A stretch of 64,000 bases of DNA from Candidatus Latescibacterota bacterium (GTDB taxonomy: Bacteria; Latescibacterota; UBA2968; GCA-2709665): the NCBI GenBank assembly GCA_965203805.1, contig OZ241917.1, forward strand, positions 2,400,001 to 2,464,000, given 5' to 3'. The notes under the pieces are model-generated. The model searched no databases, had not been told where the DNA came from, and saw only the letters and a program-made list of their open reading frames with translations. Below are positions 22-17,004 of the stretch, in pieces. Position 1 is the first letter of the stretch. Every line of letters begins with the position of its first letter. The position numbers and the translations under genes are program-made.

Positions 22-3000
22 GTTTCAATCCTTGTTCTGATGGAAGATTCTCTCTGAGCACTGACCGGCGCGGATGCTGTTATCAGCACGGTGATGTTTC
101 AATCCTTGTTCTGATGGAAGATTCTCTCTGAGTCCGGACAGCGCCGCGCGGTCCGCCTGCAGCGAGCGGAGTTTCAATCCTTGTTCTGATGGAAGATTCT
201 CTCTGAGCGATCCCGGCTGAAGGCGTTGCGTGGTTGATTCCCAGGGTTTCAATCCTTGTTCTGATGGAAGATTCTCTCTGAGCGGCGCACGGCCCGCGAA
301 CAGCAGGCCCTGATCGAGTTTCAATCCTTGTTCTGATGGAAGATTCTCTCTGAGCAGGGGGCGGACGTTTGCATGCTCCGGGAGTATGCCATGTTTCAAT
401 CCTTGTTCTGATGGAAGATTCTCTCTGAGAGGCAGGGCTCGGGATTTGCACGGACCAACGTTGCAGTTTCAATCCTTGTTCTGATGGAAGATTCTCTCTG
501 AGTCCAGATCGTATCGAACAGCGGCGAGCCATTCTTTTCGTTTCAATCCTTGTTCTGATGGAAGATTCTCTCTGAGCGGAGGCCGGGAATATCACGGCGC
601 GGACGCTGGCGAAGTTTCAATCCTTGTTCTGATGGAAGATTCTCTCTGAGACGTCGTGCAGCTCTGTTATCCGACGTCGGAAGCCCTGTTTCAATCCTTG
701 TTCTGATGGAAGATTCTCTCTGAGAGTGCGCCGTATGCGGTTATGTCAAGTGCAGGTGCCGTTTCAATCCTTGTTCTGATGGAAGATTCTCTCTGAGGTG
801 AGGAACGGCGGAACAGACCACCCCAGACATAACCCGTTTCAATCCTTGTTCTGATGGAAGATTCTCTCTGAGACCCGGAACAGGAACCGGGTGACAAAGG
901 TATCGAGGTTTCAATCCTTGTTCTGATGGAAGATTCTCTCTGAGACCCGGAACAGGAACCGGGTGACAAAGGTATCGAGGTTTCAATCCTTGTTCTGATG
1001 GAAGATTCTCTCTGAGATATGACCGCGAACCATATCACGACGTCGGTATTTAGTTTCAATCCTTGTTCTGATGGAAGATTCTCTCTGAGCACAAAGGCGA
1101 AAGCTACGGATGATAGCTTTGAACCTGTTTCAATCCTTGTTCTGATGGAAGATTCTCTCTGAGCGGTGCCGGATGCGCCGGCGAGGCCCGTCGCTTTCGC
1201 CCGGTTTCAATCCTTGTTCTGATGGAAGATTCTCTCTGAGTTCTGTATCCGCCGTCTGACGGATGGCCTGACGTGCTGTTTCAATCCTTGTTCTGATGGA
1301 AGATTCTCTCTGAGCATTCAGCGGTTGGGCCGCGTCATACGCGCCTTCTACGGGTTTCAATCCTTGTTCTGATGGAAGATTCTCTCTGAGGTAGGAAGCT
1401 GCTTTGGTCCCACTGTCCACACGGTCCAGTTTCAATCCTTGTTCTGATGGAAGATTCTCTCTGAGTGTTGAAAGTCTCCCCGTCCCCGAAACCCTGGCTA
1501 TCCGTTTCAATCCTTGTTCTGATGGAAGATTCTCTCTGAGCGCGCTGCAGTTCGGCCTTGTGGAAGTTCGCGGCTGTGTTTCAATCCTTGTTCTGATGGA
1601 AGATTCTCTCTGAGCCTGGTTCCTGCGGGCCCTGTTCTGCCGGGTGAAAAGTGTTTCAATCCTTGTTCTGATGGAAGATTCTCTCTGAGCCGGTCTGGGG
1701 AGTCGATTGAGAGGCTGGTTTGCGAATGTTTCAATCCTTGTTCTGATGGAAGATTCTCTCTGAGCGGGGCGGTTGAGCGTTGTCATCGCCGCTATCGACA
1801 AAATGTTTCAATCCTTGTTCTGATGGAAGATTCTCTCTGAGGAAAAGCACCTGTGGCGCACCGCCCGCATTTTGGCCGAGTTTCAATCCTTGTTCTGATG
1901 GAAGATTCTCTCTGAGTTTTTGCGGCTCCCGCCGAAGGTTGTTGACCAGATCATGTTTCAATCCTTGTTCTGATGGAAGATTCTCTCTGAGTAACAGTGG
2001 GGGATTCGCTGGCAAGGCCCCAAACGCCTGTTTCAATCCTTGTTCTGATGGAAGATTCTCTCTGAGCTATTCGCATCGCTTCGCGCAAGCGGTGGTTATT
2101 TACGTTTCAATCCTTGTTCTGATGGAAGATTCTCTCTGAGCGTCTCGAGGTGGTCACGGTCGTACTACATCGATGCCGTTTCAATCCTTGTTCTGATGGA
2201 AGATTCTCTCTGAGTGAAGGTCGCGCAGCTTTATGCGTACCGCGAGGGGGTCGTTTCAATCCTTGTTCTGATGGAAGATTCTCTCTGAGAGCTTACGCTG
2301 AAGCGATCCCAGGCAATCACAGCCTCGGTTTCAATCCTTGTTCTGATGGAAGATTCTCTCTGAGGATCATGACGCCGGGAAGCGCATTCGATATCACGAT
2401 GTTTCAATCCTTGTTCTGATGGAAGATTCTCTCTGAGCGGCGCCGTCGTCGACGTCCTCCGCGATGCGCCCACCGTTTCAATCCTTGTTCTGATGGAAGA
2501 TTCTCTCTGAGGCACGGGCGCGAATCAATTAGAGCCTCTCAGGTCGATGTTTCAATCCTTGTTCTGATGGAAGATTCTCTCTGAGTAGTCGAGCACATCC
2601 AGGCAGGAGAGTATGCATGGGACGTTTCAATCCTTGTTCTGATGGAAGATTCTCTCTGAGTCTGGGAGTATGTCATGGAGGGTGCATTGATCCGCGTTTC
2701 AATCCTTGTTCTGATGGAAGATTCTCTCTGAGGGCCTCCAGATGCGCCGGTAACCGCCGGCGGTTCTTGTTTCAATCCTTGTTCTGATGGAAGATTCTCT
2801 CTGAGCGCCGTAGGAGATTTTTGTGAGTCTTCAGGGAGAGAGTTTCAATCCTTGTTCTGATGGAAGATTCTCTCTGAGATCGTGGCGGGTGAAAGTGCAG
2901 CGTGTGCGACGTGTCATGTTTCAATCCTTGTTCTGATGGAAGATTCTCTCTGAGTGAGCTACCCGCCAAAATCGTCAAGTATGCTTCTTTAGTTTCAATC

Positions 3001-3847
3001 CTTGTTCTGATGGAAGATTCTCTCTGAGCCTGTCAGGCGTTGTGCGATACGAGCTAACGGTTTACGGGGTTTCAATCCTTGTTCTGATGGAAGATTCTCT
3101 CTGAGCGGGCGCGGTTCGCCCGGATTCTCAAATGCTTAGAGTGTTTCAATCCTTGTTCTGATGGAAGATTCTCTCTGAGTCTCGTCCAGTTCGAGGGCGC
3201 GGACGTGTGCATGTGTTTCAATCCTTGTTCTGATGGAAGATTCTCTCTGAGCATGGGGGGCCTCTGATGCTGAAGAACTTAACGCCTCTGTTTCAATCCT
3301 TGTTCTGATGGAAGATTCTCTCTGAGCTATCACAGACGGAACTGTCACAACTACAGATGATGGGTTTCAATCCTTGTTCTGATGGAAGATTCTCTCTGAG
3401 CTTGAATATAAGCGGCCAACACACGGCCAAAATTGAAACCGTTTCAATCCTTGTTCTGATGGAAGATTCTCTCTGAGGATCTGGCCGACGTCGGCGGTCC
3501 TGGCGTGTTCCGGATGTTTCAATCCTTGTTCTGATGGAAGATTCTCTCTGAGTTCTCGTCCAGTTCGAGGGCCAGGACGTGTGCATGCTGTTTCAATCCT
3601 TGTTCTGATGGAAGATTCTCTCTGAGGGTCGAATGTCATTTCCCCGACTACAGGACTAAGGCGTTTCAATCCTTGTTCTGATGGAAGATTCTCTCTGAGA
3701 GCAATGGCTATTATTGCAGGTTCGGAAGATATAGCGTTTCAATCCTTGTTCTGATGGAAGATTCTCTCTGAGGTACCCTGCTCACTGGCTATTCGCTCAA
3801 TCCGGTTAGCGTTTCAATCCTTGTTCTGATGGAAGATTCTCTCTGAG
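22..3847 (-). CRISPR. CRISPR array: 52 copies of a 37-bp repeat and 51 complete spacers of about 35-40 bp
   Basis: Repeat GTTTCAATCCTTGTTCTGATGGAAGATTCTCTCTGAG on the + strand, counted by eye from 22 to 3847. Its reverse complement ends in the canonical ATTGAAAC. The AT-rich leader and the cas genes lie to the right, so transcription is on the minus strand. The array may continue left of the window. Confidence 0.99.
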
Positions 3848-4018: not shown

Positions 4019-4615
4019 TCAGACACAGATATTTCTATAACAACAGTCCCCACATTTGACACGATGAGGTGTTTTTCTGGGCAGACGTCCAGTCTCAATG
4101 ATGTCGAGGATCTCAGCCACAGCAGTCTTTGCTGCGCTTTCTTCGGCCTCGCCAATGGGGACTTCGACCAACCGACTGCCACCGCGCACGTACGCTATGT
4201 AACCACGCGTTACCGATTTTCGATAGACTTCGCGGGCGAGAAGCCCATAGAGAGTAATTTGGATTCGATGAGTCTTGAAAGCATTCTCTCGATAGGGCGT
4301 ATACTTGTAATCGAGCGGTGCAAACGTCCCATCGTGCAATGTCAGGACTTCATCGACAACCCCACGGACACTTAGCGCGGGTGACGCCAAATACACGTTG
4401 AGATCTCTATCTACGGCACCGATTTTCTTCCGCAGGTAGGATCGGTTTTCGCGTTCCCTGCGTTTGTGGACTTCCCGCCCCTTGAGCACCTTGAAGCGCC
4501 GGTCCTCAAACTGCGGGATATTAAGCACGTTCATGAAATACGTGAAACGGGGACAATAGACGTGCTCGATCACCTCCGAAGGCGTGATCATGATTGTCGT
4601 TTCGGTGTCGCTCAC
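4019..4615 (-). CDS. cas4: CRISPR-associated exonuclease Cas4
   Basis: YCPR, RGVVD, DYK, QITLY and C-terminal CGDCCYRNIC Fe-S/RecB motifs. Confidence 0.96.
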   Translation of the reverse strand: MSDTETTIMITPSEVIEHVYCPRFTYFMNVLNIPQFEDRRFKVLKGREVHKRRERENRSYLRKKIGAVDRDLNVYLASPALSVRGVVDEVLTLHDGTFAPLDYKYTPYRENAFKTHRIQITLYGLLAREVYRKSVTRGYIAYVRGGSRLVEVPIGEAEESAAKTAVAEILDIIETGRLPRKTPHRVKCGDCCYRNICV

Positions 4616-4917
4616 AGGAATAGACTCTTTACTTCGTCGGTGACCAGTTTCTGGTCAAACGCCTGGCCTTGTAGTACGACTTTGCGGAAGTCCATGGCGC
4701 ACATGGGGAAAATATACACGCTGTCGGTTTCCTCATCTATGTGTTCCTCAATACGCATCGAGAGTTCATCCAGCCGGTTGTGTTTGACCGTCCCGAGAAA
4801 GACGGACTTTTGTACTCGGTAGAGGCCGGCTTCTTGACAGGCTTTGCCCACCTTCCGCCGACCCTTGTCGGCTGAGATATCGTATAGGACCCAGGTAAGG
4901 GATTCGTCAGATTTCAT
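4612..4917 (-). CDS. cas2: CRISPR-associated endoribonuclease Cas2
   Basis: VLYDIS, RVQKSVF and DSVYIFPMC motifs; 101 aa. Confidence 0.97.
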   Translation of the reverse strand: MKSDESLTWVLYDISADKGRRKVGKACQEAGLYRVQKSVFLGTVKHNRLDELSMRIEEHIDEETDSVYIFPMCAMDFRKVVLQGQAFDQKLVTDEVKSLFL

Positions 4918-5912
4918 GTTCTCATCTCTTTGGTGTTCGGATCGTTGGCAAGCAGTTTATTAGCGATGCGGTGCAGATCGAATTGTATGCTGTCGCGCCG
5001 AGTGATGTTTCGGCCCCGGTAGCGGGTGGCTTCGTCGAGATACGTCGTGAACGCTTCGATGAGGACGGCCTTGCCCTGTTTGTTCAGTGTGAGTCCATTT
5101 TGGAGGTTGTCGAACAGGTCTTTTTTGATCTTGCGCGCAGAGAAAAGTCCAAGCACCGTCTCGTCCGCCCAAATCCGGTATTGCTCGATAAGGTCAAATA
5201 CAAGGGATGGTTTGTTGTAGTGATCGGTATGAATGAACCCAATGTATGGATCGAGTCCGGCGAGCAAACAGGCTCGTTCGACCGTACCATACAGGATGCC
5301 ATAGGCATAATTGAGCAGGCAGTTGAATGGGTCTTTGGCCGGATTGCGGCTCCGGCCTTCAAACCGGTAGTGGATTGGTAAGAGTAATGATACAGCCGAC
5401 CAGTAGGTTCGTCCGGCACGCCCCTCCAGGCCGAGAAGGCTCTGGCGTGCGGAATCAATTTTTCCTGTGACGTCCTGCGTTTGATCTTTGAGCGTCTTTA
5501 GACTACCGATCGCTTCGGTCAGCTGCGCTGAAAGGCGCGTCCGACGATCGCGCATGCGCGCCAGCAGCGCAATCTGGTTGTCAAATTTGCGCTCCACCCA
5601 GCCGAGGGCAAGCCGCATGCCAAGGTCGGTTTCCGCGGCCGCAAATTGCATTCGTCGTATCGCGGTTGTTGAACCTGGTCGGCCGTGCCACACCCGACCG
5701 AACGGGTCGCCGTACTTGTCCAGAAAGAGGATGTCGATATTCTTCTCAACAGCAAGTTGCACCGCATCGGACGAGAACGCCGCGCCCGTTGAAATCAGAA
5801 TGGAGCGTACCTTGCGAGCGGAGATTTCGGTCGATTGTCCATCAACTTTGATGTTGAACAATTCCCCGCGCCGGCTCAGATACGCACCGAATGTGTTGAG
5901 TACGAGTTGCAT
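4914..5912 (-). CDS. cas1: CRISPR-associated integrase Cas1
   Basis: LGLEG...YW, DPFNCLLNYAYGIL, GLDPYIGFIH and LVFDLIEQYR motifs. The start is taken at MQLVLN, whose ATG overlaps the cas3 stop (TAATG). Confidence 0.97.
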   Translation of the reverse strand: MQLVLNTFGAYLSRRGELFNIKVDGQSTEISARKVRSILISTGAAFSSDAVQLAVEKNIDILFLDKYGDPFGRVWHGRPGSTTAIRRMQFAAAETDLGMRLALGWVERKFDNQIALLARMRDRRTRLSAQLTEAIGSLKTLKDQTQDVTGKIDSARQSLLGLEGRAGRTYWSAVSLLLPIHYRFEGRSRNPAKDPFNCLLNYAYGILYGTVERACLLAGLDPYIGFIHTDHYNKPSLVFDLIEQYRIWADETVLGLFSARKIKKDLFDNLQNGLTLNKQGKAVLIEAFTTYLDEATRYRGRNITRRDSIQFDLHRIANKLLANDPNTKEMRT

Positions 5913-8218
5913 TAGAATAGCCTTAAAGCAACGTCTGCAGCGAAGCGTCCGCCTAAGTGTGAGTCGTATTCCATTTCGCAGAACGAAAACAAGCCGTCTC
6001 CTTCTCTCAAGTAGTGTTTTTTTATATACCACAAAGGCATTTTTAACTCGTAAAGCCGTCGATCCTTGGGATCCGCCAAACCTATTACATCGTCCTTGAA
6101 TTCGTGAGGAATGACGCTTTGTTGTTCGTAATTGGAGACCCGAGTACTCCGTCGCTCATCGTGACCACGTACGGGATCTAAAATACCCGAAAAGCGCCTC
6201 TGATCTTGCATTACGGTTTGCTGGGCAAGGATGAAATCCTCGTGTGTATTAATCTCAGTATGGGCATAAATGCTCTCTACCAAATCAAGCAGATCCTGTT
6301 CGGTTAGCCGCCTGTTGTCCATATCTGCAAATGCACGGAAACTACGGTTTAAGAGAGCCTGTTCCGCGCTCTGCTCAATATGCATATTATCGAAATATAT
6401 CCTTTCCGAGCCAGGTCCTGGACGAAAGATGACGACCTCACCATCACGCCTCCTCTTTCGGTTGACTCGTCCTGCCCGTTGCGCTAGCGCGTCGGGGGGC
6501 GCGCATTCGGTAAAAAGCACATCAAAATCAATATCTAGAGCGACTTCTACCACTTGTGTCGCAATCAACAGCGTAGGCTCTTTATTTAAAATAAACTCCT
6601 CTTTGTCTTGTCTGTCTTTGAGAATAAACTTGGAGTGATAACAGACAGGCTGAAGCTCTTCAAGAGCTTCGGCTAATTCTTGACATCGTCTCACGGTATT
6701 TACCACTACCAAGACTCGTTTTCCGACAATGACCTTATCCCGGATCAGGTCCAATCTATCGAGAAGATCGCCGTCAACAACCCGGAACAAACTTCTGGAT
6801 TCTTGCAGCAACTCGTGATCTCTGACGACCTCCGTATGTGCCGATTCCTCTAGCGCAGTCATTAGACTGCATTCCAAGAAACGAGGCAAAGTCGCGCTCA
6901 TAACCATGAATCGTGCTCCGGCGGCTCCCAACTGTTCAATAGCTTTGAATATTAGGCCCGCCGTATAGGGATCGTATGCATGAATTTCGTCCAGAATAAT
7001 TGCGGAGTCACAGGCGGCAAACGCCTTAAGAGGCCACAGTCCTGCATGAAACAAAGTCGTCAAAAGTTGATCAACGGTCCCTACTGTCACGGGTGGGATA
7101 AAATGGCGGTCAAAGAGCGCACGCGAACGCACGTCCTCTCTGCCGTCGCCGACTGCATCATCCATCTGAGCTTGCTCTCGCCGGTTTACTAAATCCGCCA
7201 TTGAGTGCGTCAGACCGACTGGGTGACCATAAGAAGAAAAAAACTGACGCATCCGTTCATACAAACTGTTCGCCGTTACCATGGTAGGAAGGAGGTAGAG
7301 GATTTTTCCAACGTGACCTTGTTCCACCTGCCCCAATGCCCACAGCAAGGCTGCTTCCGTCTTGCCGATGCCCGTAGGCGCGACTGCGACTACATGGCCG
7401 TCTATACTTCCACAAGTACGTTGGAAATCACGAAACTCCGAAAAAACCCAGCCTTCGCGTTTGCCTTTTTCTATCAGATAGGAATAGACTTTTTTAGGGC
7501 CTACATCTACAGTAAATCGGTAATCGAAGCTGTGCGCCGAAGCGTGCCAATCGGCATTTATCAATAGTCCCTTCATCAGGATAAACAACGCTCGGACAGC
7601 GTCGATGTCTGTCACCCTTCTTTTCAAGCTACTAACGAAGGACGGTCGCTTTTTCGCCAGCTCGCTACACTTCTCGTAATCCAATGTCGGAGGGCAAGCA
7701 CCGAAATCGTCAAAGATCTTCTCGACGACACGTTGCCCTTCTTCAATGCCCCCTTCAACCCATGTAAGAGCACCAGGGTTTTTGCCCTCGCGCTCGAAAC
7801 GAGTCAATTCTCCATCAACCGGTTTGTGATGGCCGAGAACTACCATCGCTTCCGTTACTCCCGTGCAGATAGCTTCGGTCAATTGGCCATGAGTCTGTCG
7901 CAAATTGCGGGCCGCTAGAAAAACAAAGGCAGTAGATGCGTATTCATGGCGAAAATTGGCTTTGATGGCTCTCTGTCTATCAACCTCAGAGGAGGCGTAC
8001 ATAATGCGTTGGAAATTCGCCGATAGCTTGCCCATATCGTGAAAAGCTACACACAAAAGGCTGCTTAGCAGAAAGCGATCTCGGTCTATGCTGTGGCGAT
8101 CACATAGTCGATTGATCGCACCGCTGTGTCTATCGATCAATTGCCTCCAAGCCAAATAGACGCTCCAAACGTGCTGCTCGTACGTTTCATCGGGCCTGCA
8201 CTTAGCGAGAAAGATCAT
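5912..8218 (-). CDS. cas3: CRISPR-associated helicase/nuclease Cas3 (HD + SF2)
   Basis: HDMGK, HEYAS, GHH and ADW HD motifs; APTGIGKTE, DEIH, MSAT and QRAGRVNR helicase motifs. Confidence 0.97.
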   Translation of the reverse strand: MIFLAKCRPDETYEQHVWSVYLAWRQLIDRHSGAINRLCDRHSIDRDRFLLSSLLCVAFHDMGKLSANFQRIMYASSEVDRQRAIKANFRHEYASTAFVFLAARNLRQTHGQLTEAICTGVTEAMVVLGHHKPVDGELTRFEREGKNPGALTWVEGGIEEGQRVVEKIFDDFGACPPTLDYEKCSELAKKRPSFVSSLKRRVTDIDAVRALFILMKGLLINADWHASAHSFDYRFTVDVGPKKVYSYLIEKGKREGWVFSEFRDFQRTCGSIDGHVVAVAPTGIGKTEAALLWALGQVEQGHVGKILYLLPTMVTANSLYERMRQFFSSYGHPVGLTHSMADLVNRREQAQMDDAVGDGREDVRSRALFDRHFIPPVTVGTVDQLLTTLFHAGLWPLKAFAACDSAIILDEIHAYDPYTAGLIFKAIEQLGAAGARFMVMSATLPRFLECSLMTALEESAHTEVVRDHELLQESRSLFRVVDGDLLDRLDLIRDKVIVGKRVLVVVNTVRRCQELAEALEELQPVCYHSKFILKDRQDKEEFILNKEPTLLIATQVVEVALDIDFDVLFTECAPPDALAQRAGRVNRKRRRDGEVVIFRPGPGSERIYFDNMHIEQSAEQALLNRSFRAFADMDNRRLTEQDLLDLVESIYAHTEINTHEDFILAQQTVMQDQRRFSGILDPVRGHDERRSTRVSNYEQQSVIPHEFKDDVIGLADPKDRRLYELKMPLWYIKKHYLREGDGLFSFCEMEYDSHLGGRFAADVALRLF

Positions 8219-8946
8219 CGAGGTACCAGTGTAATTCGGTCGTAGCCTGGGCCTAGGATTTTGGTACTTAGACTAAAGCCCTTGATTGGGTCTTTAACTT
8301 GTATCGGATGGCCGATATAGGTAAAAAACTCCCGTCCGACAATCGTACGTCGCTCGCCTTCAAAACTGAAGCGTACAGGTAGATTGAACACTTGGGGCGC
8401 ACGTATTGACTCAGTGAGAGGTAGCTCTAAGACGGATTTATCTGCTTCGTATGCTCCTGTAATATCCTGAGGCACTGCACAAAAATGGACCGATTCTATT
8501 GGTTCCCAATCTGCCTCCGATAATCCGACGGAGCACAAGACGAGCAGGCTATCGCTGTGACCAGCGGTAAGCGCATATACCGGGTCGTTGAACGCTTGGG
8601 CAATTCGCTGAGCAGTGGATTCTTCTTCAGCACAGTACCCTAGACCAATAGATAGATCGACAACATATTCCCTTAGTATAACATCTGAGATCACTTCCCC
8701 GGACTTCACTTTGCGGTACTTCCAGAGGTCCTTAAAGGTGCCGCGATCTCTACCCCCGACGCCAACGAGGATGTTATACTCCTCAACGAACTGTTGACTC
8801 TCCTCCATACCATACCCGAGTGCCGCCCCTAGCAATCCGATACAGCTTGTATAGGACGGAAGGGGTAGCGTTTTATGGAACGTATGTGTTTCAGGTAGGC
8901 GAAAAGAGGCGGTTTCCGCGAATGCCTGGATCAATACTAGATGCAT
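8215..8946 (-). CDS. cas5: Cas5 (type I-B)
   Basis: N-terminal ASFRLP...TLPLPSYTSCIGLLGAALG RAMP motif; position in the operon. Confidence 0.93.
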   Translation of the reverse strand: MHLVLIQAFAETASFRLPETHTFHKTLPLPSYTSCIGLLGAALGYGMEESQQFVEEYNILVGVGGRDRGTFKDLWKYRKVKSGEVISDVILREYVVDLSIGLGYCAEEESTAQRIAQAFNDPVYALTAGHSDSLLVLCSVGLSEADWEPIESVHFCAVPQDITGAYEADKSVLELPLTESIRAPQVFNLPVRFSFEGERRTIVGREFFTYIGHPIQVKDPIKGFSLSTKILGPGYDRITLVPR

Positions 8947-8949
8947 GCC

Positions 8950-9873
8950 TTACACTCCGTTTTGCCGATAACAATCTCTCACCCAACACTTCAGCTGTAC
9001 GAATGCCTCACCGATGGTACAGGCTCTTTCGGGTACACCATCAAATAAACCTGAACGCACCCCAATTACAGAATCGATCACTACAGCCTCATGGTCTTTT
9101 AGCACTTCTTCTAAGACCAACCCGTTAAGCGTTTGTCCTTTGACTTGGACGGATTCCAAAAAGATCGGTGCTTTGACTGAAGTAAGGGCAGCAGCAACGA
9201 ACTTGGGTGTCAAATCTGCCAAGAATCGACTTTGCCGCCCGGTGCTCCACAGATTCTGCAGAGCTTCTAGCAACGCAGTAATGCGCTCTATCTTAAGAGA
9301 GGTTTTCAATTCTCTTTCAAAACCGTCACCTGCCCCTACACGATCAAGTTCGACGAGAATGGTGCCCCGATAGAGACCGCCGTGAATTTCCGTTTCGTAG
9401 ATATTGGGATCGCCACCCGCTTTGACACTCATGTAGTTGGTGCCGAAATCTAAGTCTCCTTGGTAAGGCTGTATGGCGACGAGTGGCGAAACTCGCACGG
9501 GGGAAGTTCGTTTGTCGGTCTTTCCTCTTGCTCCCTGACTCTCCCCCGCTTGGGCATTCATGTAGCCGAATAGATCATCATCAATATATGAGACTGGATC
9601 GCATTCCGTTGTCGCTGCTCCCTTTTTGGCCGCAGCCACAACGCCCTCGGACAACTCGTGGCCCATCGTGTCCAACTGATCACGCAATGCCCTGCGTAGC
9701 GCCTGTGAGGAGACATAGGGATATTCCCTGATGCCTTCGTTTGTTTCCCTGGTGAGCTTTTTGATACTTGATATATTATCCGCTTCCTTATCACTCCCGT
9801 TGAGGCTGGCGAATGAAACGGGCGTTAGGTAGGTTACAGTTAAGGCTTTCGCTTGAGTATGATCTTTGCTCAT
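8950..9873 (-). CDS. cas7: Cas7/Cst2/DevR backbone subunit (type I-B)
   Basis: PYVSSQALRRALR, DDDLFGYM, KRTSPVRVS and IYETEIH motifs. Confidence 0.95.
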   Translation of the reverse strand: MSKDHTQAKALTVTYLTPVSFASLNGSDKEADNISSIKKLTRETNEGIREYPYVSSQALRRALRDQLDTMGHELSEGVVAAAKKGAATTECDPVSYIDDDLFGYMNAQAGESQGARGKTDKRTSPVRVSPLVAIQPYQGDLDFGTNYMSVKAGGDPNIYETEIHGGLYRGTILVELDRVGAGDGFERELKTSLKIERITALLEALQNLWSTGRQSRFLADLTPKFVAAALTSVKAPIFLESVQVKGQTLNGLVLEEVLKDHEAVVIDSVIGVRSGLFDGVPERACTIGEAFVQLKCWVRDCYRQNGV

Positions 9874-10172
9874 TGCTTCTCTCCTTTCTTGTCGTTTGAG
9901 GCAGTACCAGCGTTGAAAGAATTGAGAGCCGCCAACATGCAGAAACCGCGAAACTCTTCGAAGTTAGTTTGATTTAGTTGACCTTCGTACGTGGCTGGGG
10001 GTACGGCAATTTTCCACTTAAACTGAAGTCGGTTGAGTTCGCTGAGAAAATCTGGAACCGTTCGACACTTTCTCAGTGCGAACAGACTTCCCTTTTTGCC
10101 GCCTTCCTTGGCGATGACCGAGCCAATGCGTCTCCCAAGAGTTACGGCTGCTTCACGCGCGTGTGTTTCCAT
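9870..10172 (-). CDS. cas11: Predicted internally translated Cas11 small subunit (C-terminal 100 aa of Cas8)
   Basis: In-frame ATG (METHAREAA...) preceded by AAGGAGG inside cas8 (reads GAAAGGAGGAAGT-ATG). Confidence 0.7.
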   Translation of the reverse strand: METHAREAAVTLGRRIGSVIAKEGGKKGSLFALRKCRTVPDFLSELNRLQFKWKIAVPPATYEGQLNQTNFEEFRGFCMLAALNSFNAGTASNDKKGEKQ

Positions 10173-11597
10173 ACTTCCTCCTTTCTTCCGCAGGACATCC
10201 TCGTAGTGAATGACGAAATCGAAAAGTGGTGCAAAGTACTGCCGTCCTTGTCGGTTTACGTGATAGGCGAATGCTTCTGCTTGGCGTAAGATGGATTGTT
10301 TACGCAGTACCGACCCAAGCACACGATCCCGTTCTAGAGAGCGGTTTTCATTTCGTTGCGCTGTGAAGTCGATCATTGAATGTGCGATGTCTTTCCAAGC
10401 TACTCCTTGTATTTCGGCTCCTCCTGGCTTTTCGATATGTTGGAATAGACGGAACAGATAGACCACATCGTCAAAGAGCCAGACCTGTGTGGGCATCTGG
10501 GTATTTCCCTTCTGTTCGGCTGAGATTAAAGCGAAGGAAAGAGGTGCATCGCTCCACACCACATCCAAAAACTCGCTATAGCCATCGTCTTCGATGGCAT
10601 CTCTTCGATTCCGGGTTAGGTGCGTGTAAACGCGGTGCATAAAAGAAAACCCTACTTCCCGGGGATGGGTGAAATATCCTCCTATCTGCGACTCAAAGTT
10701 GCGCCAAAAATTGGGTTCCCACTCAACTATGCTTCTCAGGCTGTCATAGACTTGATCCATTTTGAGCAAGTCGGGTGCGAAAGGGAGAAACATATGCAAG
10801 CGGTTGCCCGCTTGGCTGAAAAATCCGTTGACTGGAACGAACTTGCCGACATAAGCGCATCTCCAGCATACTTGGGCTACTTCGCGAGTTAAATTAAAAA
10901 AAGACTTAACACCAGAATCGCCAGTTATGAAAGGAAAAATCGTCTGGTTGACCTTTTCCATCGACGAAGAGTATTGACCACAGAGAAAACAGGGAGCAGC
11001 TTTTAGTTTTCCTCCTTTAACATTAATATTCACTTTAGGTCGCACTCTATTGGGTTCGTCCAACAGCATGCCTGCAGGAGGTCCGGCCTTGAGTTTTTGC
11101 TGTTCCAAGAATCCATCCAATCTCTCTTGCAGATGGGCATATGATTTGGGTAACAGGCCAGGCTGTTTTTTGTCGTTCCAACGGACTTGGCCACCGGCTG
11201 GTCGGGGAGCCTTGTCAAAAATGAAAGCGGCAATGCCTCGTGCTTTTCGCTTGGGAAATGTTTCAAACTGATCTTCTGTGGAATCGTAATAGAAATTCCA
11301 AGAAGATTTATCATCTCTTTGCTTCTGCGTAGAGACATCATAATAACGCTTTACTAAGCGGCCGTATGCCCTTTCCAAGACTGCCTCAACATCCTTCGCC
11401 TCACCGCCGATTTTCAGACCATCCTTTTCTAAACTTACGCAAACCGGGTATTCCTCACCGAGGTGGTCGTAAGACTCCTTATCACCGCGCTGTGGGTCGG
11501 CGTGGACATTCCCAACTATGCAGCGATATATACCCAACACCCCTGAGTCGTTCCAGAAATTGTTGATTCTGGGAAAGGATATCTGGACTTCGCTCAT
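9870..11597 (-). CDS. cas8: Cas8 large subunit (Cst1/CXXC_CXXC-type, I-B)
   Basis: N-terminal FWNDSGVLG, paired CFLC and CWRC zinc motifs; lies between cas6 and cas7. Confidence 0.85.
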   Translation of the reverse strand: MSEVQISFPRINNFWNDSGVLGIYRCIVGNVHADPQRGDKESYDHLGEEYPVCVSLEKDGLKIGGEAKDVEAVLERAYGRLVKRYYDVSTQKQRDDKSSWNFYYDSTEDQFETFPKRKARGIAAFIFDKAPRPAGGQVRWNDKKQPGLLPKSYAHLQERLDGFLEQQKLKAGPPAGMLLDEPNRVRPKVNINVKGGKLKAAPCFLCGQYSSSMEKVNQTIFPFITGDSGVKSFFNLTREVAQVCWRCAYVGKFVPVNGFFSQAGNRLHMFLPFAPDLLKMDQVYDSLRSIVEWEPNFWRNFESQIGGYFTHPREVGFSFMHRVYTHLTRNRRDAIEDDGYSEFLDVVWSDAPLSFALISAEQKGNTQMPTQVWLFDDVVYLFRLFQHIEKPGGAEIQGVAWKDIAHSMIDFTAQRNENRSLERDRVLGSVLRKQSILRQAEAFAYHVNRQGRQYFAPLFDFVIHYEDVLRKKGGSMETHAREAAVTLGRRIGSVIAKEGGKKGSLFALRKCRTVPDFLSELNRLQFKWKIAVPPATYEGQLNQTNFEEFRGFCMLAALNSFNAGTASNDKKGEKQ

Positions 11598-11600
11598 CGC

Positions 11601-12275
11601 CTACTCCTCAACTCTTTGAATGGTGCCAAATCCACGAGCACTCTGTTTGCCAACACCCCACCAGTTGGGCAATGCGAAATTGACGTTGAAAGTACCTGAG
11701 ATGCCTAGCAATTCGACGCCATTCTTTATCTCGATCTGCTGCGTACCATCTATTCGCATTGAAGAGACGATCCTTTCTTCTACCGATAAACCGATTGATT
11801 TACATAAAGACAAGATATTTCCAACTAAAATTCTACTGAGGATGTTCTCTCGCCCAGTATTGCTCTTCGTACTGATAAAGCGTTTGTAGTTGAGCTCATT
11901 GAGGGCTAGCCAAGGCGTGATGAATCGATATGCCAGACGTTTTTTCGTCGAGCCTATTGGGACTTGACCAGTCGCTCTTTTACTATCGAGAACTTCGATG
12001 CGTTCTCTATCTATATCTATGGCGTCCGGCAAATCGACAGCCTGTAACAAGAACGCTCCCTTCTCCAGTCCCATGATTCTCCCTGTACCACTTATAGTTT
12101 TGTATTGGATTAAAGGGTGCTGGTAGATCAGACCCATATTTCCGTGGTGGTGAAATTCCGCGCGATTGCGGTATAGGTTACCGAAGAAACCACGTAATTT
12201 ACGTGTTTCATTCTTTCGCAATGGTCTCATGCAGTAGAGCGTAATGGCGGTCAAATCGCATATAGTTTTGCTCAC
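11601..12275 (-). CDS. cas6: CRISPR-associated endoribonuclease Cas6
   Basis: LRGFFG, HPLIQYK, YRFITPWLALN and C-terminal G-loop GVGKQSARGFGTI; GTG start. Confidence 0.92.
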   Translation of the reverse strand: MSKTICDLTAITLYCMRPLRKNETRKLRGFFGNLYRNRAEFHHHGNMGLIYQHPLIQYKTISGTGRIMGLEKGAFLLQAVDLPDAIDIDRERIEVLDSKRATGQVPIGSTKKRLAYRFITPWLALNELNYKRFISTKSNTGRENILSRILVGNILSLCKSIGLSVEERIVSSMRIDGTQQIEIKNGVELLGISGTFNVNFALPNWWGVGKQSARGFGTIQRVEE

Positions 12276-12444
12276 AATGTATATCCTCGTTTTTGTGGAT
12301 GACAGTTACTTAACGGAAAACATGTGAATGGCGTTAAACACAGCTGCTGGCTGAATTAGCAAACCCGGAACCCGAATTGGAACCTCGAAAACATCTCGCT
12401 TCCTAAACGACATCGATTGTCTCACCATTAGGAAAAGGTGACAT

Positions 12445-12540
12445 TCTTAAATATCTGTTTTAATGGAGGTTGTAGGCTAATTTCTAGTTTGCAAGCAAAC
12501 CATATTTCAACTCTTGTTTTGATAGGGTTAAATTGCCGCT
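12445..12540 (-). CRISPR. Degenerate mini-array (repeat-like, 22-nt spacer, repeat-like) upstream of cas6
   Basis: 12504-12525 ATTTCAACTCTTGTTTTGATAG matches 17/22 of the repeat 5' part. 12445-12481 TCTTAAATATCTGTTTTAATGGAGGTTGTAGGCTAAT matches about 20/37. Both are in the same orientation as the main array. Confidence 0.6.
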
Positions 12541-12671
12541 GACGTCCACGAGGCATATGGAAAAGCGTTGCTTCTTTCTCCTGGGTTGGCTAAACTCTCT
12601 TCAGCGACCAGAATGGGCCGGTGCCAACCGACCCAGGACAATGTCCCTGGCCGCTATTTTTTGTACACCAT
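12536..12671. repeat. Repeat segment A, copy 1 (~135 bp, structured)
   Basis: Near-identical to 14805-14940 (3 substitutions seen). Confidence 0.9.
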
Positions 12672-12780
12672 ACTTCGACAAACATCCCCCACCTGCTGGT
12701 GACCAGGAACGGGGCGCGGGAGGAGTGCGTTCGGGAACTTCCTATCCACAGCTCTAGCCCTGGCGTGTTTACCCTGAACA

Positions 12781-13338
12781 TCATCCGATCCGCGCCAATG
12801 CGGTCGTCAGCGCCTCAGCGAGCATTTCGGTCTTGTACTCCCAACTCCGGCGTGCGCTTGGACTGATACACTCGATGGCCTTTACGCCAGCGCGCCTGCA
12901 AGCACCTGCTGCGACCGATCCGAGTGCGATCACCGTTCGGCCTTCGACTTCATGCCGGGTGATTCTGTCGAAGGACTCGTCGACATGCCGTCGCGGGAAC
13001 GGTGGTCCCTCCTTGTTCGGCAACAGATGAAACGCTTGCGTTACATAGATGTCCGCACGGGTGAGAATCGCGCGATCCAGGGCCAGCGTCAGCACTTTGT
13101 TGAAGGGCATACTCGGCAGCCAACCCTGCTCCTTCAGCACGTCTCGATGCACGCGGACCGACGGTGCGTCGAGCCAATAGTGGGCCACAAGCACCGGACC
13201 CGTCTCGGAGTTCGACACCATCTCGCAGGGTGTAACCCACTCGCCGTCGAACCCGACATCAGAGAGCGTCTTGTACTTGTGCTTGTATCCTGAAATTACG
13301 AACTCTCGGCGGCGGGCGATAATTTCCGATCTCTTCAT
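12781..13338 (-). CDS. Uracil-DNA glycosylase superfamily protein (divergent)
   Basis: DIYVTQAFH, VIALGSVA and SPSAR resemble UDG-like motifs (YxTNA, VIALG, HPSxR). Confidence 0.6.
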   Translation of the reverse strand: MKRSEIIARRREFVISGYKHKYKTLSDVGFDGEWVTPCEMVSNSETGPVLVAHYWLDAPSVRVHRDVLKEQGWLPSMPFNKVLTLALDRAILTRADIYVTQAFHLLPNKEGPPFPRRHVDESFDRITRHEVEGRTVIALGSVAAGACRRAGVKAIECISPSARRSWEYKTEMLAEALTTALARIG

Positions 13339-13419
13339 TCTATCCTCTTGATTGAGTCATGTGAACCTGAAGGCCTGAACGCGAAAACGGGCCGGGTGGA
13401 ACCGCCGGTATTGCGGCGG

Positions 13420-14052
13420 CTAACGTCGCGACGGATTGGTTTTCTCAACAGCATTCCTGGCGGCGTGGCTGGCCTCACCGACGGCATCCCTAACCGCGCG
13501 TCTGGCTGCCCTTTCGGCTTCGTAGGCGGCTTCCCGTGTCTTGCTGGCGTCGTCATACGTTTTCAGGGTGGCCCGATAGTTCTCCCAGGCTGCGATGTTT
13601 CTCTCCCGGCCCGTTTCGTATATCGCTCTGGCAGCCTTCGCGGCGGCATTTCTGGCGGCGATTTCCGCCTCGAATGCGGCATCGTATTTCATCCTGGCAG
13701 CTTTGAATATCTGCAGGGCGAACTCATAGTTCTCCCCGGCCGCCGCAACACGCCGCTCCCGATCGGCTTCGTAAATCAGGCGAGCGTCCCTATAAATCAC
13801 CCAGGCGTTTCCGTATACCTCCCTGGCGTCACTTCGGACCCGGCGCCGGGAGAAAGGCGACCTCCGTTTTTCAAACAACGTCGCATTTCCGCCTCTGTTG
13901 GCAGCAAGGTGTTCATACAGGGCGACAGTCCATGCGATTTCCCAGGCGTCGCGTTCGGCTCCTGCCGCTTCCGGCGCTTCGTTTTCGAATGGGGTCGCGT
14001 TGATTGCAAGCATGGTGACGGCTAACACGACGTATCGGGCTGTGCGCATCAT
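13420..14052 (-). CDS. Hypothetical secreted Ala-rich helical repeat protein
   Basis: GGAG RBS before MMRTARYVVLAVTMLAINA (signal-like); internal ~50-aa duplication (ARLIYEADRERRVAAAGENY / ARAIYETGRERNIAAWENY). Confidence 0.6.
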   Translation of the reverse strand: MMRTARYVVLAVTMLAINATPFENEAPEAAGAERDAWEIAWTVALYEHLAANRGGNATLFEKRRSPFSRRRVRSDAREVYGNAWVIYRDARLIYEADRERRVAAAGENYEFALQIFKAARMKYDAAFEAEIAARNAAAKAARAIYETGRERNIAAWENYRATLKTYDDASKTREAAYEAERAARRAVRDAVGEASHAARNAVEKTNPSRR

Positions 14053-14379
14053 GTTCTTTTCTCCTGGCTGTCGTCTTGTGGCGTGTTTTCCGGACAAGAG
14101 TTGCACCCGGTGCGATTTTTGGGCACGGGTAATGCTCAGGTACGGAACCCACATCGACGGTAGATAAAATCGAGTGCGTATGTGCTGCTCGGGAAGTAGT
14201 CTGGAATTGTGACTTCAACAAAAGCTGATTTATCTTCAGTCCGAGTTCGCCGTCCACGTGTTGAGAAGCCCGTTGCGATATAGCAGCGGCGATAAACCTC
14301 CACTGTTTACTGATCCTGGTAGTACATCGCGCCCATCGGGCCTATCCTCTCGTATGGGTTCCGTCGCCCCCATGTGCAT

Positions 14380-14408
14380 ATTATAGTGAAACTTTGTGCA
14401 GCATGCAA
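14380..14408 (-). promoter_or_regulatory. Sigma70-type promoter (segment C, copy 1)
   Basis: TTGCAT-17 nt-TATAAT on the minus strand. Confidence 0.65.
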
Positions 14409-14804
14409 GGGATTGTCGCGCTACGTTGGTCAAGGTACAGCCATCAGCAGTTGGCTTGAAAAAAGTGAAATCCACTAAGCCCACATGCCGACGGAAATCC
14501 GAAGTGAAACCGGATAATGACATAGACGTCGAGGGCAGGCGCCCTCGTTCCCAGGTGTCGCAAGATTCGACAGTTGGAGAATGGCGCGCGTGCGAAATGT
14601 CGCAAAATGCGACAACGGTGTCATAGCACGGCCGCTCGCATCGACCGTTTCTCGAGCCGGCGTCGGTCCCGCCATACACGCTTCCCGCCGCGAACATGCC
14701 GGTCGCGACCTCACGCCTGAGGTCTTCCGGCGCGAGGACTCGGCATTGCCCTATCTGCCGATCCACGGTTTCATTTCCAGCGAGTGCTTCACGCTGAGCC
14801 GCAT

Positions 14805-15168
14805 CCGCTGACGTCCACGAGGCATATGGAAAAGCGTTGCTTTTTTCTCCCGGGTTGGCTAAACTCTCTTCAGCGACCAGAATGGGCCGGTGCCAACCGA
14901 CCCGGGACAATGTCCCTGGCCGCTATTTTTTGTACACCATGCTTCCACGAATTTTCCTTTCCTACGGGCGACCGGCACCGGACCGGTCTCGGAGTTCGAC
15001 ACCATCTCGCAGGGTGTAACCCACTCGCCGTCGAACCCGACATCAGAGAGCGTCTTGTACTTGTGCTCGTATCCTCGCGCCCATCAGGCCTATCCTCTCG
15101 GATGGGTTCCATCGCCCCTATACGCACATTATAGTGAAACTTTGTGCAGCATGCAAGGGACTGCCGCA
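14805..15168. repeat. Mosaic duplicate made of segments A, B (fragment of the UDG-like gene) and C
   Basis: 14805-14940 matches 12536-12671; 14975-15075 matches 13191-13291; 15075-15168 matches 14327-14419. Confidence 0.9.
15128..15156 (-). promoter_or_regulatory. Sigma70-type promoter (segment C, copy 2)
   Basis: Identical TTGCAT-17 nt-TATAAT on the minus strand. Confidence 0.6.
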
Positions 15169-15457
15169 CTTTGAGACGGGAACGAGTGGCCGCTGATCAG
15201 TGGTCAGAAAGGACCCAATCCGTTGGCAACAGTGCGACAATGTTGCGAGCTTCTCAAGGGCGGACGCCGCCTGCGGATTGTGTTCGTCGCTGTGCGCGGA
15301 GAGAAGGCGCGCGGCCTGACACGGGAGGTGAGTGAGCGCAACCGTGCCGCCTGTTCGGATCGGGACACGTATAAATCATGCGCGTGTGAATCGATGCCGC
15401 AGCAGATCCTTCGTCAGCCTGCCTGCCGATGATTCTCCGGCAGGCAAGGCGGCTTCC

Positions 15458-15673
15458 TCAGGATGACAGCGGGGATGGAGCGTAATTCAGGACGGATTTA
15501 CCGTCAGCACGTACGTATTCGCGGCTGCCTCTCGGAGTAAGCCCGATCGCATCGAGATACGCCCGTGGCACAAGCGAATCGTACGCACCGGTATCGACGA
15601 GGAATTTCCCTGTCCAGCTGCGACCCGGATCCGCGGGATTGCGAATGGTGACGTCAACGTACGTCGCGCCCAT
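15458..15673 (-). pseudogene. Truncated clan AA aspartic protease (retropepsin-like)
   Basis: MGATYVDVTIRNP...FLVDTGA motif; only 71 aa and the C-terminal LLG motif region is missing. Confidence 0.7.
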
Positions 15674-15737
15674 TGGCCGTTCTCCGTGTTCGTTGGTTAA
15701 CCGGATGTCGCAAATTGCAACAGCGGCGCGAGTTGCG

Positions 15738-16055
15738 TCAGTCGATCCGGACCGCGGTGCCGCTGACCGAGACCATCAGCATGCTGCCTTCACCGACGAC
15801 TTCGTAGTCCAGGTCGATGCCGACAACGGCGTTGGCGCCCTCCTGGCGGGCGGCTTCCTGCATTTCACTGAACGCGATCTCGCGGGCCTGCTTCAGTTCC
15901 TTCTCGTACGCCGCGGAACGCCCGCCCACGATGTCGCGAATGCCGGCGAAGAAATCCTTGAAGATGTTGGCGCCGAGAATCGCCTCGCCGGTGACGATGC
16001 CTTTGTACTCACGAATCGTCTTGCCTTCAATTCCGGGTGTGGTGGTCACAATCAT
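15738..16055 (-). CDS. ybjQ: YbjQ/UPF0145 family heavy-metal-binding domain protein
   Basis: [11 protein letters not shown]...[11 protein letters not shown]...GANAVVG...SGTAV. Confidence 0.93.
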
Positions 16056-16140
16056 CAGTAAGCCTCCCTCAGATTCAATGGACGGTTGACGGTCGGCGTC
16101 CGTTCGGCCGACCGACGGCCCGGACCCGCCCGCGCATGGT

Positions 16141-17004
16141 CTATTTGTAGCTGTTGTAGACGATCGCCAGCCAGCGGTCGGTGCTCATCCAGCCCTGGCC
16201 CCACGAACGCCACTTCTCCGGCACCCCGGCGGCCTGGATTTCCTCGAGGGTCCTGCCGGCGGCGATGGCTTCCTTCACGAGGGCTGCGCACGTTTCCAGC
16301 ATCTCAAGCGCCGTTCTCAGATCGTCAGGACCCGCGAGCGGGCCGTGGCCGGGGATTATACGCGCATCCGGAGGGATCTGTTTCAGAAGAGACCGGACCG
16401 CCTCGATATAGCCTCCGACGTTTCCGCCGCCCCGGAGGTCCACGTAAGGAAAACTGCCGTTGAAAAAAAGGTCGCCGGCGTGGACGACGTTCGATCCGGT
16501 AAAGAACACAACGCCGTCGCCGTCGGTGTGGGCCTTCGGAAAATGCACGACGCGCAGTTCCTCGCCGTTGAAGTGAATCGACAGACCTTCGTCGAAGGTG
16601 ATTTCCGGCAGGGCGGCTTCAGGCAGCGGCCTGTCGTCGACACGCCTGGCTGCAAGGCGGTTTCGCACGTTCCGGTGAGCGACGATGACGCCCTTCTCTC
16701 CGAAATGAGCATTCCCGCCGGTGTGGTCGCCATGGTAGTGCGTATTCAAGACGAAAGTGGGATCGCCGCCCCCCAATTCGCCGATAGCGGCGCGGATCTT
16801 GCCGGCCAGCGGCGCGAACTGATCGTCGACGATCAGGACGCCGTCCGCGCCCACGGACACGCCGATGTTTCCGCCGCTCCCCTCAAGCATGTAGACGCGG
16901 TCGGCGAGCCGGGTGGCCCTGATCTCGACCGCGGAAAAATCCCTCTGCGCGAATGCCGTGCCGGATACGGCCAGCGACAAAGCAATGGTCATCCATCCGG
17001 TCAT
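16141..17004 (-). CDS. MBL-fold metallo-hydrolase (cyclase-like, secreted)
   Basis: [21 protein letters not shown] and IPGHG motifs; signal peptide. Confidence 0.92.

Follow-up and report, generated by a model that had tools for sequence, protein, structure and literature searches.

The window analysed here, a 64,000-nucleotide stretch of Candidatus Latescibacterota DNA, carries a degenerate mini-CRISPR upstream of cas6, in which two decayed copies of the array repeat flank a short guide. Relatives of this element in other type I-B loci have guides that match a motif-flanked site at or near the start of the operon, and no such site was found in the genome that contains the window. We read the window copy as a regulatory guide orphaned in the leader of a cas operon of a different lineage, and give this reading a probability of roughly 55%.

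The host locus encodes Cas6b, a Cas8b-like protein, Cas7, Cas5, Cas3 and Cas4-1-2 beside an array (Table 1), and from this Pfam-based gene content it is predicted to be a type I-B-like system; the cas8 assignment combines a weak Cas_CXXC_CXXC match (E 9.3e-4, below cut-off) with gene position. The genes at one end follow the order cas3-cas1-cas2-cas4 with cas4 last (4019-6032), and the listed cas1 ORF shares ∼120 nt with the end of cas3, so that the true cas1 start is probably further in. The array extends past the start of the window (G000:C1:2399065-2400944), and isolated repeat-like sequences lie a few kb beyond it, at G000:C1 2395618-2395662 and 2390654. Intact cas genes and uniform array repeats indicate a locus that is likely active, for which some source of expression must exist. 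The genome also has a second CRISPR-Cas adaptation module, indicated by another Cas1 match (G000:C1:2900548-2901411, E 1.1e-86) that falls within an open frame of 661 aa at a distance of ∼500 kb from the window. The G+C content is ∼42-50% across the locus and ∼60% from 12600 onwards. The closest Cas6 relatives (82-89% identity) are in another family of the phylum, recorded as Latescibacterota, and the best relative in the same genus is only 56% identical, yet the array repeat is closest to the repeat of that same-genus genome; the array and the cas genes therefore seem to have had different histories, making the locus a mixed one.

Table 1. Coordinates of the mini-array, its surroundings and the genes next to related mini-arrays (positions of the window unless a locus is named).
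Feature	Position	Strand	Basis or remark
CRISPR array, 52 identical 37-nt repeats in the window, spacers 35-40 nt	22..3847	-	repeat search
cas8b-like, cas7, cas5, cas3, cas1, cas2, cas4	4019..11597	-	Pfam and ORFs
cas6b	11601..12275	-	Pfam Cas6b_N E 1.6e-17, Cas6b_C E 3.6e-32; GTG start at 12275
psiR2c, third repeat-like copy	12277..12313	-	21/37; 16.2 bits; ends 1 nt before cas6 start
∼80-nt element between mini-array and cas6	12346..12425	-	72-80% copies in same-genus G061 (two places), G058 (two) and G048 (one)
psiR2b, downstream degenerate repeat	12445..12481	-	20/37; profile 10.5 bits; aligned with psiR2 of G093 and G063
psiS, 22-nt spacer-like guide, palindromic core	12482..12503	-	motif-flanked target absent from genome
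psiR1, upstream degenerate repeat	12504..12540	-	20/37 against array repeat; profile 16.6 bits; collinear with psiR1 of G093 and G063
Leader segment upstream of mini-array	12541..12720	-	collinear with region upstream of G093 mini-array
Sigma-70-family genes (Pfam region 2/4 or ECF)	L025:10142-10705, L061:698-1216, L064:292-558	-, +, +	adjoin mini-array upstream
WYL/WCX regulator and DUF3800 genes before the G093 mini-array	L127:2607-3062 and L127:1763-2602	-	Pfam

An earlier note, written from the sequence of the window alone, had described at 12445-12540 on the minus strand a palindromic 22-nt spacer between two degenerate array repeats, some 170 bp upstream of cas6. This description agrees with the sequence: 169 nt separate the unit from the cas6 GTG, and the spacer (12503-12482) contains a 6+6 palindrome. 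The two repeat-derived sequences lie in array orientation, outside the array and within the cas locus. Matches between psiR1 and the array repeat cluster at the 3′ end (17/22, including 6/8 of the 5′-handle and 11/14 of the core), so 5′-handle nucleotides are kept, while those of psiR2b concentrate before the cleavage site (9/14 of the core); this second copy keeps the 3′-handle part and is decayed at and after the Cas6 cut site, its 10.5 bits being the lowest profile score among the psiR2 copies scored in a comparison of 16 loci.

Plain Hamming distance to the 37-nt repeat gave no separation, with many background 37-mers of the window at 15-18 mismatches, and because such counting fails to set the candidates apart we used instead a repeat profile built from the 3′ 25 nt of the array repeats of seven related loci. 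Outside the array, in 60 kb of the window, the top three sense-strand profile matches are at 12504-12528 (16.6 bits), 12277-12301 (16.2 bits) and 12445-12469 (10.5 bits), all within one 265-nt region upstream of cas6, and in the whole genome only nine other sites away from the array neighbourhood reach 16 bits. Among 20000 dinucleotide-preserving shuffles of 12276-12540, 18 have a maximum of at least 16.2 bits, two have two or more matches of at least 10.5 bits, and none has three, which places the repeat similarity above chance. Chance similarity in an AT-rich intergenic region might be argued from the modest identity of the copies to the repeat (20-21/37, no better than several background sites), but given that none of the shuffles reproduces the three matches and that DNA orthologs occur in two other genomes (E down to 5.5e-14) its probability is negligible. 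The repeat-likeness of the mini-CRISPR is non-random, and the element is real.

Other searches returned nothing: there was no Rfam match in 11500-16500 at E ≤1, no tRNA or tmRNA in 11500-16000, and no match to the element in 50,697 phage records. RNA folds of mini-arrays and leaders are no more stable than those of shuffled sequences, except in L001 (z -2.15). The spacer hairpin is present in the window and in L001, partial in L003 and absent from L026 and L019, and because of these absences we do not count it as a feature of the family.

Homologs of the element were sought with window positions 12276-12545 in 168 genomes of the phylum (labels with G denote genomes and those with L loci). DNA homologs covering exactly 12525-12443 were found in G093 (80% identity, E 5.5e-14) and G063 (73%); psiS has in both the same length and the same first five bases as in the window, and the similarity to G093 is collinear over ∼300 nt, including the segment upstream of psiR1. 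The mini-array of G093 ends ∼40 nt before a Cas_TM1802 ORF (Pfam, Cas8b family, E 3.4e-53), and G063 has the same layout, as judged by alignment of the first codons only. These two mini-arrays head cas8b-first I-B loci, and a genome search found no TM1802 cas8b in the window's own genome. The same design is seen directly before cas6 in L001-L003, L025-L027, L013 and L019, and in the metagenome loci L046, L062 and L064, so that conservation upstream of homologous cas genes, a check that the earlier note had proposed, is borne out by the two orthologs and by other I-B loci. A profile scan of 76 of 80 metagenome loci (four with less than 200 nt upstream were dropped) found the expected layout above 11 bits in five (L046, L052, L061, L062 and L064) and an ambiguous case in L119; the 70 loci that had no match may have array repeats of families other than those in the profile. 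Measured between the ends of psiR1 and psiR2, the mini-array unit spans 59 nt in the window and, by hand count, in G093, and 56-57 nt in L001, L002, L025 and L026, compared with an array unit of ∼74 nt, which gives a guide of ∼22 nt. In contigs of four sequencing runs, 12210-12533 is bridged only in the likely source sample, so that these contigs do not bear on conservation among strains.

Guide-target pairs were scored in these relatives. The guide was taken as the 24 nt after psiR1, and because type I Cascade leaves positions 6, 12 and 18 unpaired, the first 18 positions were scored without these three, leaving 15 informative positions. Pairs matching at 15/15 were found in L001, L002, L019, L046 and G093, at 14/15 in L064 and G063, and at 13/15 in L061; shuffled guides reached the observed score in 0/200 cases for seven of these loci and in 1/200 for L061. 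The match is preceded by TTA in six of the eight pairs and by TTG in the other two, mismatches fall at positions 6, 12 and 18, and guide and target covary at position 2 between L019 and L046. A seed mismatch at position 3 is tolerated in the G063 pair. In L025 and L026 there are seed-region matches (10/12 and 12/12) with TTA and TTG respectively, but the 15-position scores are not above the control (0.89 and 0.645). The window, L052 (control 0.78) and L062 (control 0.14) are without a pair in the 16-locus comparison, and L015 and L024 have no profile match of at least 9 bits; L003, L027 and L013 have no psiR1 above threshold, and the sequence taken as their guide is the coding start and thus meaningless.

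In L019 and L046 the target lies immediately next to the -10 box of a TTGACA-17 promoter, and in L001 it begins 24 nt past the -10 box, so that in these three relatives the site is at an operon promoter; in G063 it follows a TTGACA-17 promoter read by eye. In L025, L061 and L064 a sigma-70-family gene lies before the mini-array and cas6 and has the target just upstream of it, and from this placement the guide may control the sigma factor together with the cas genes. The L026 target is upstream of a two-gene cassette, and the 15/15 target of G093 overlaps the start of the DUF3800 gene, which follows the gene for a WYL/WCX regulator.

The earlier note had suggested autoregulation of the cas operon, and a guide-target pair was looked for in the window and in the whole genome without being found. 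There is no seed-anchored match of at least 9/12 from -1500 to +700 of cas6, and the exact 12-mer of the guide start is absent elsewhere in the 5.87-Mb genome. With up to one mismatch to the 12-mer the genome has eight matches, all lacking TTA or TTG; the pattern of positions 1-5 and 7-11 has six other matches, none with TTA or TTG and none extending further; and with one more mismatch allowed and the motif required there are six, with 10-13 of 24 positions agreeing. The 255 TTA/TTG sites in 11000-17000 score at best 9/15, and the best 15-position score in the window, 11/15, is the guide's own palindrome on the opposite strand, which shuffled guides equal at a frequency of 0.245. A motif-flanked site matching the 5′ part of the spacer over at least 10 nt, as in CreR, was thus found in neither the window nor the genome, and no target was found here at a cas-operon or cargo promoter. 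The 51 array spacers have no significant match in their own genome, and the short high-identity matches of the array to the 168 phylum genomes were repeat matches and not protospacers in all of the cases checked (17, and one in the own genome). With no protospacers to draw on, the TTA/TTG motif is derived solely from the regulatory pairs, and a target could go unseen if this Cascade recognised another motif or accepted a less strict seed.

Comparison of the leader with other genomes shows a mosaic of three origins. The stretch 12720-12435, which includes the mini-array, is collinear with the leader of G093. Between this and cas6 is the ∼80-nt element of Table 1, which is present in a single copy in its own genome and is intergenic in the relatives that have copies; it could be an acquired operon promoter, its GG...TTGC arrangement having a spacing that resembles a -24/-12 promoter. 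With the leader of the closest cas6 relatives the window shares no more than 12322-12278 (76% over 45 nt, L001 leader). This segment spans the 3′ part of the relatives' guide and their psiR2, and the operon's own mini-array has thus lost psiR1 and the start of the guide. The second, foreign mini-array sits 168 nt further upstream. It differs from G093 and G063 at both predicted Cas6 cut sites, and the palindrome arises from T-to-C changes relative to G093 at guide positions 9, 13 and 17; these changes could reflect selection for something else.

The region further upstream contains duplications. Positions 12536-12682 recur at 14805-14951, the only two copies in the genome, and 14805-15170 is a patchwork of three pieces that are also spread over 12536-14422 and are 87-96% identical, further duplicate pairs being 13182-13291 with 14966-15075 and 14327-14422 with 15075-15170. 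The core of the duplicated piece (∼12600-12662) holds a terminator-like hairpin on the plus strand (12633-12650), has about ten times the neighbouring depth in run X2, and has other flanks in contigs of X4-X6; similar sequence precedes the mini-array in G093 and cas6 in L013. As to transcription on the minus strand, a simple scan of 12150-12900 found no sigma-70-like promoter, and no terminator was found between the upstream same-strand ORF (12781-13338) and the mini-array, so that read-through transcription is possible.

A third repeat-like copy, psiR2c, was missed in the first reading and belongs to the remnant of an L001-type mini-array at 12278-12322. Its GAGGA is, by sequence, the only Shine-Dalgarno motif before the cas6 GTG. 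Across the 16 loci a profile match of at least 9 bits is present in 14, ending no more than 35 nt from the cas6 start in 12 and no more than 2 nt from it in nine (the window, L001-L003, L025-L027, L013 and L019; the starts in metagenome loci are estimates), and the psiR2 core is invariant across 12 aligned sequences. Cas6 of such systems leaves an 8-nt 5′-handle, which would place a cut in psiR2 within the Shine-Dalgarno motif, a geometry that suggests translational feedback on cas6. As a wider proposal, which we regard as tentative and rather doubtful, the downstream repeat of the family's mini-arrays may double as the cas6 ribosome-binding site, with AAGGA as the Shine-Dalgarno motif and the 8-nt handle as the spacing; the maturation cuts would throttle cas6 translation on top of promoter repression by Cascade, the window would retain the psiR2c layer, and in three loci the guide might control a dedicated sigma factor. 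A full-text literature search on Cas6, repeat-like sequences, Shine-Dalgarno motifs and autoregulation returned nothing on the overlap, which is also not discussed in the available body text of 10.1101/2023.03.03.530964; nor was any treatment of it found in the accessible part of 10.1101/2023.03.10.532045.

For the working members of the family we infer that mini-arrays are transcribed, cut by Cas6, loaded into Cascade and used for repression. The operon transcript would carry psiR1, the 22-nt guide and psiR2, and Cas6 cutting 8 nt before each repeat end would release a crRNA-like RNA of ∼59 nt. The loaded Cascade would bind a TTA- or TTG-flanked site that coincides with the operon promoter, follows closely after it or immediately precedes the first gene. 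Pairing there over three 6-nt segments (1-5, 7-11 and 13-17) would suffice to stop transcription yet not be long enough for Cas3 to be licensed, with negative feedback on cas expression as the outcome. The window copy would descend from a mini-array of the kind heading cas8b-first (TM1802-type) I-B loci, carried into the mosaic leader of a cas6-first operon of a different lineage. There it is perhaps still transcribed by read-through and loaded into Cascade, and would repress nothing. It is because this genome offers no target and both Cas6 cut sites differ from those of the orthologs that we read it as stranded. The copy is probably defunct; as a counterpoint, its psiR1, at 16.6 bits, is within the range of relatives that have targets (13.0-38.1).

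That the copy is a CreR-like regulator still at work, through a weak leader site at 12351-12372 or a motif other than TTA or TTG, is unlikely. The earlier note had drawn attention to an 8-nt match at 12358-12365, within the ∼80-nt element, and the match does exist: guide positions 3-10 agree without interruption at a site 90 nt ahead of cas6 that follows TTC, a type I-B motif in haloarchaea. The seed mismatch in the G063 pair makes such a site more acceptable, as do I-B mini-arrays with targets between mini-array and cas6, described in the accessible text of 10.1101/2023.03.03.530964. As a target, however, the site does not stand, since 328 of 5000 shuffled regions share a word of at least 8 nt, the site does not pair with guide positions 1 and 2, agreement is limited to 8 of the 15 informative positions compared with 13-15 in the relatives, and all ten related pairs use TTA or TTG. 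Somewhat less probable again is the possibility that the repeats act mainly as sites for Cas6 binding and cutting in the 5′ leader, affecting mRNA ends, stability or cas6 translation with no DNA target. The location of psiR2c, with the ribosome-binding site as part of the repeat, speaks for it, as does the fact that the nine loci with a match within 2 nt of the start include L003, L027 and L013, which have no psiR1 above threshold; with cleavage 8 nt from the repeat end, the Shine-Dalgarno motif would be parted from the ORF. But this accounts for psiR2c and not for the distal psiR1-spacer-psiR2b unit, whose relatives carry guide-target pairs, and a ribosome-binding site would be kept regardless, which explains part of the conservation.

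An addiction module of the CreTA type, in which the guide represses an adjacent small toxin gene and which the earlier note had offered beside autoregulation, is very improbable. It draws on a general resemblance of the mini-array to creA and on a 12-codon ORF with a Shine-Dalgarno-like motif that is readable from the leader sequence; against this, a target for the guide is absent from the whole genome, the same-genus copies of the ∼80-nt element have not preserved the ORF, and the orthologous mini-arrays are directly before cas8b with targets at operon starts. With no toxin partner found and no conserved small ORF, the addiction-module reading is unsupported. What stands of the CreR-like interpretation is its anatomy and its orthology, and what falls away in this genome is the target pair and any toxin partner; we retain the stranded regulatory guide as the preferred reading.

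Assignment of the element to the degenerate mini-CRISPRs of the CreR or crRNA-like kind is sound as judged from comparative evidence, and the literature already contains regulatory mini-arrays of the same kind ahead of cas6 in type I-B. According to the accessible text of 10.1101/2023.03.03.530964, repeat-like sequences are enriched near cas6 in 27% of I-B systems with predicted targets in the cas6 promoter region, the upstream repeat is better kept than the downstream one, spacers are shorter, and the tested I-F1 case has mismatches at positions 6 and 12; an overlap of psiR2 with the cas6 ribosome-binding site, as seen here, is not treated in that text. In CreR, as presented in the available part of 10.1101/2023.03.10.532045, psiR1 keeps the 8-nt 5′-handle and psiR2 the 3′-handle part. 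The likeness to it as seen there is in two degenerate repeats and a spacer inside a cas locus and, in the relatives only, a spacer partly matching a motif-flanked site by the cas promoter, whereas the window has no target, a guide of only 22 nt and a mosaic leader, and is known from sequence alone. The haloarchaeal I-B CreTA systems, in the portions of PMC8501985 and PMC9458426 consulted, have in creA another two-repeat degenerate mini-CRISPR that is processed by Cas6, but the window is without toxin gene and target. Solitary repeats and crRNA-like RNAs of phages (PMC10651486, 10.1101/2024.10.29.618823, as far as the accessible text goes) are repeat mimics that occupy Cas proteins without directing immunity, and by analogy the target-less guide of the window could behave like them; unlike these mimics, the window element is chromosomal and heads a cas operon.

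Together, the related I-B loci and the window copy constitute a natural series for one regulatory design, in which such circuits would appear to have been moved and broken by recombination at cas-operon leaders. The series also yields a candidate TTA/TTG motif for the systems of an uncultured lineage, and the overlap of the repeat with the cas6 ribosome-binding site may represent a second, testable layer of feedback.
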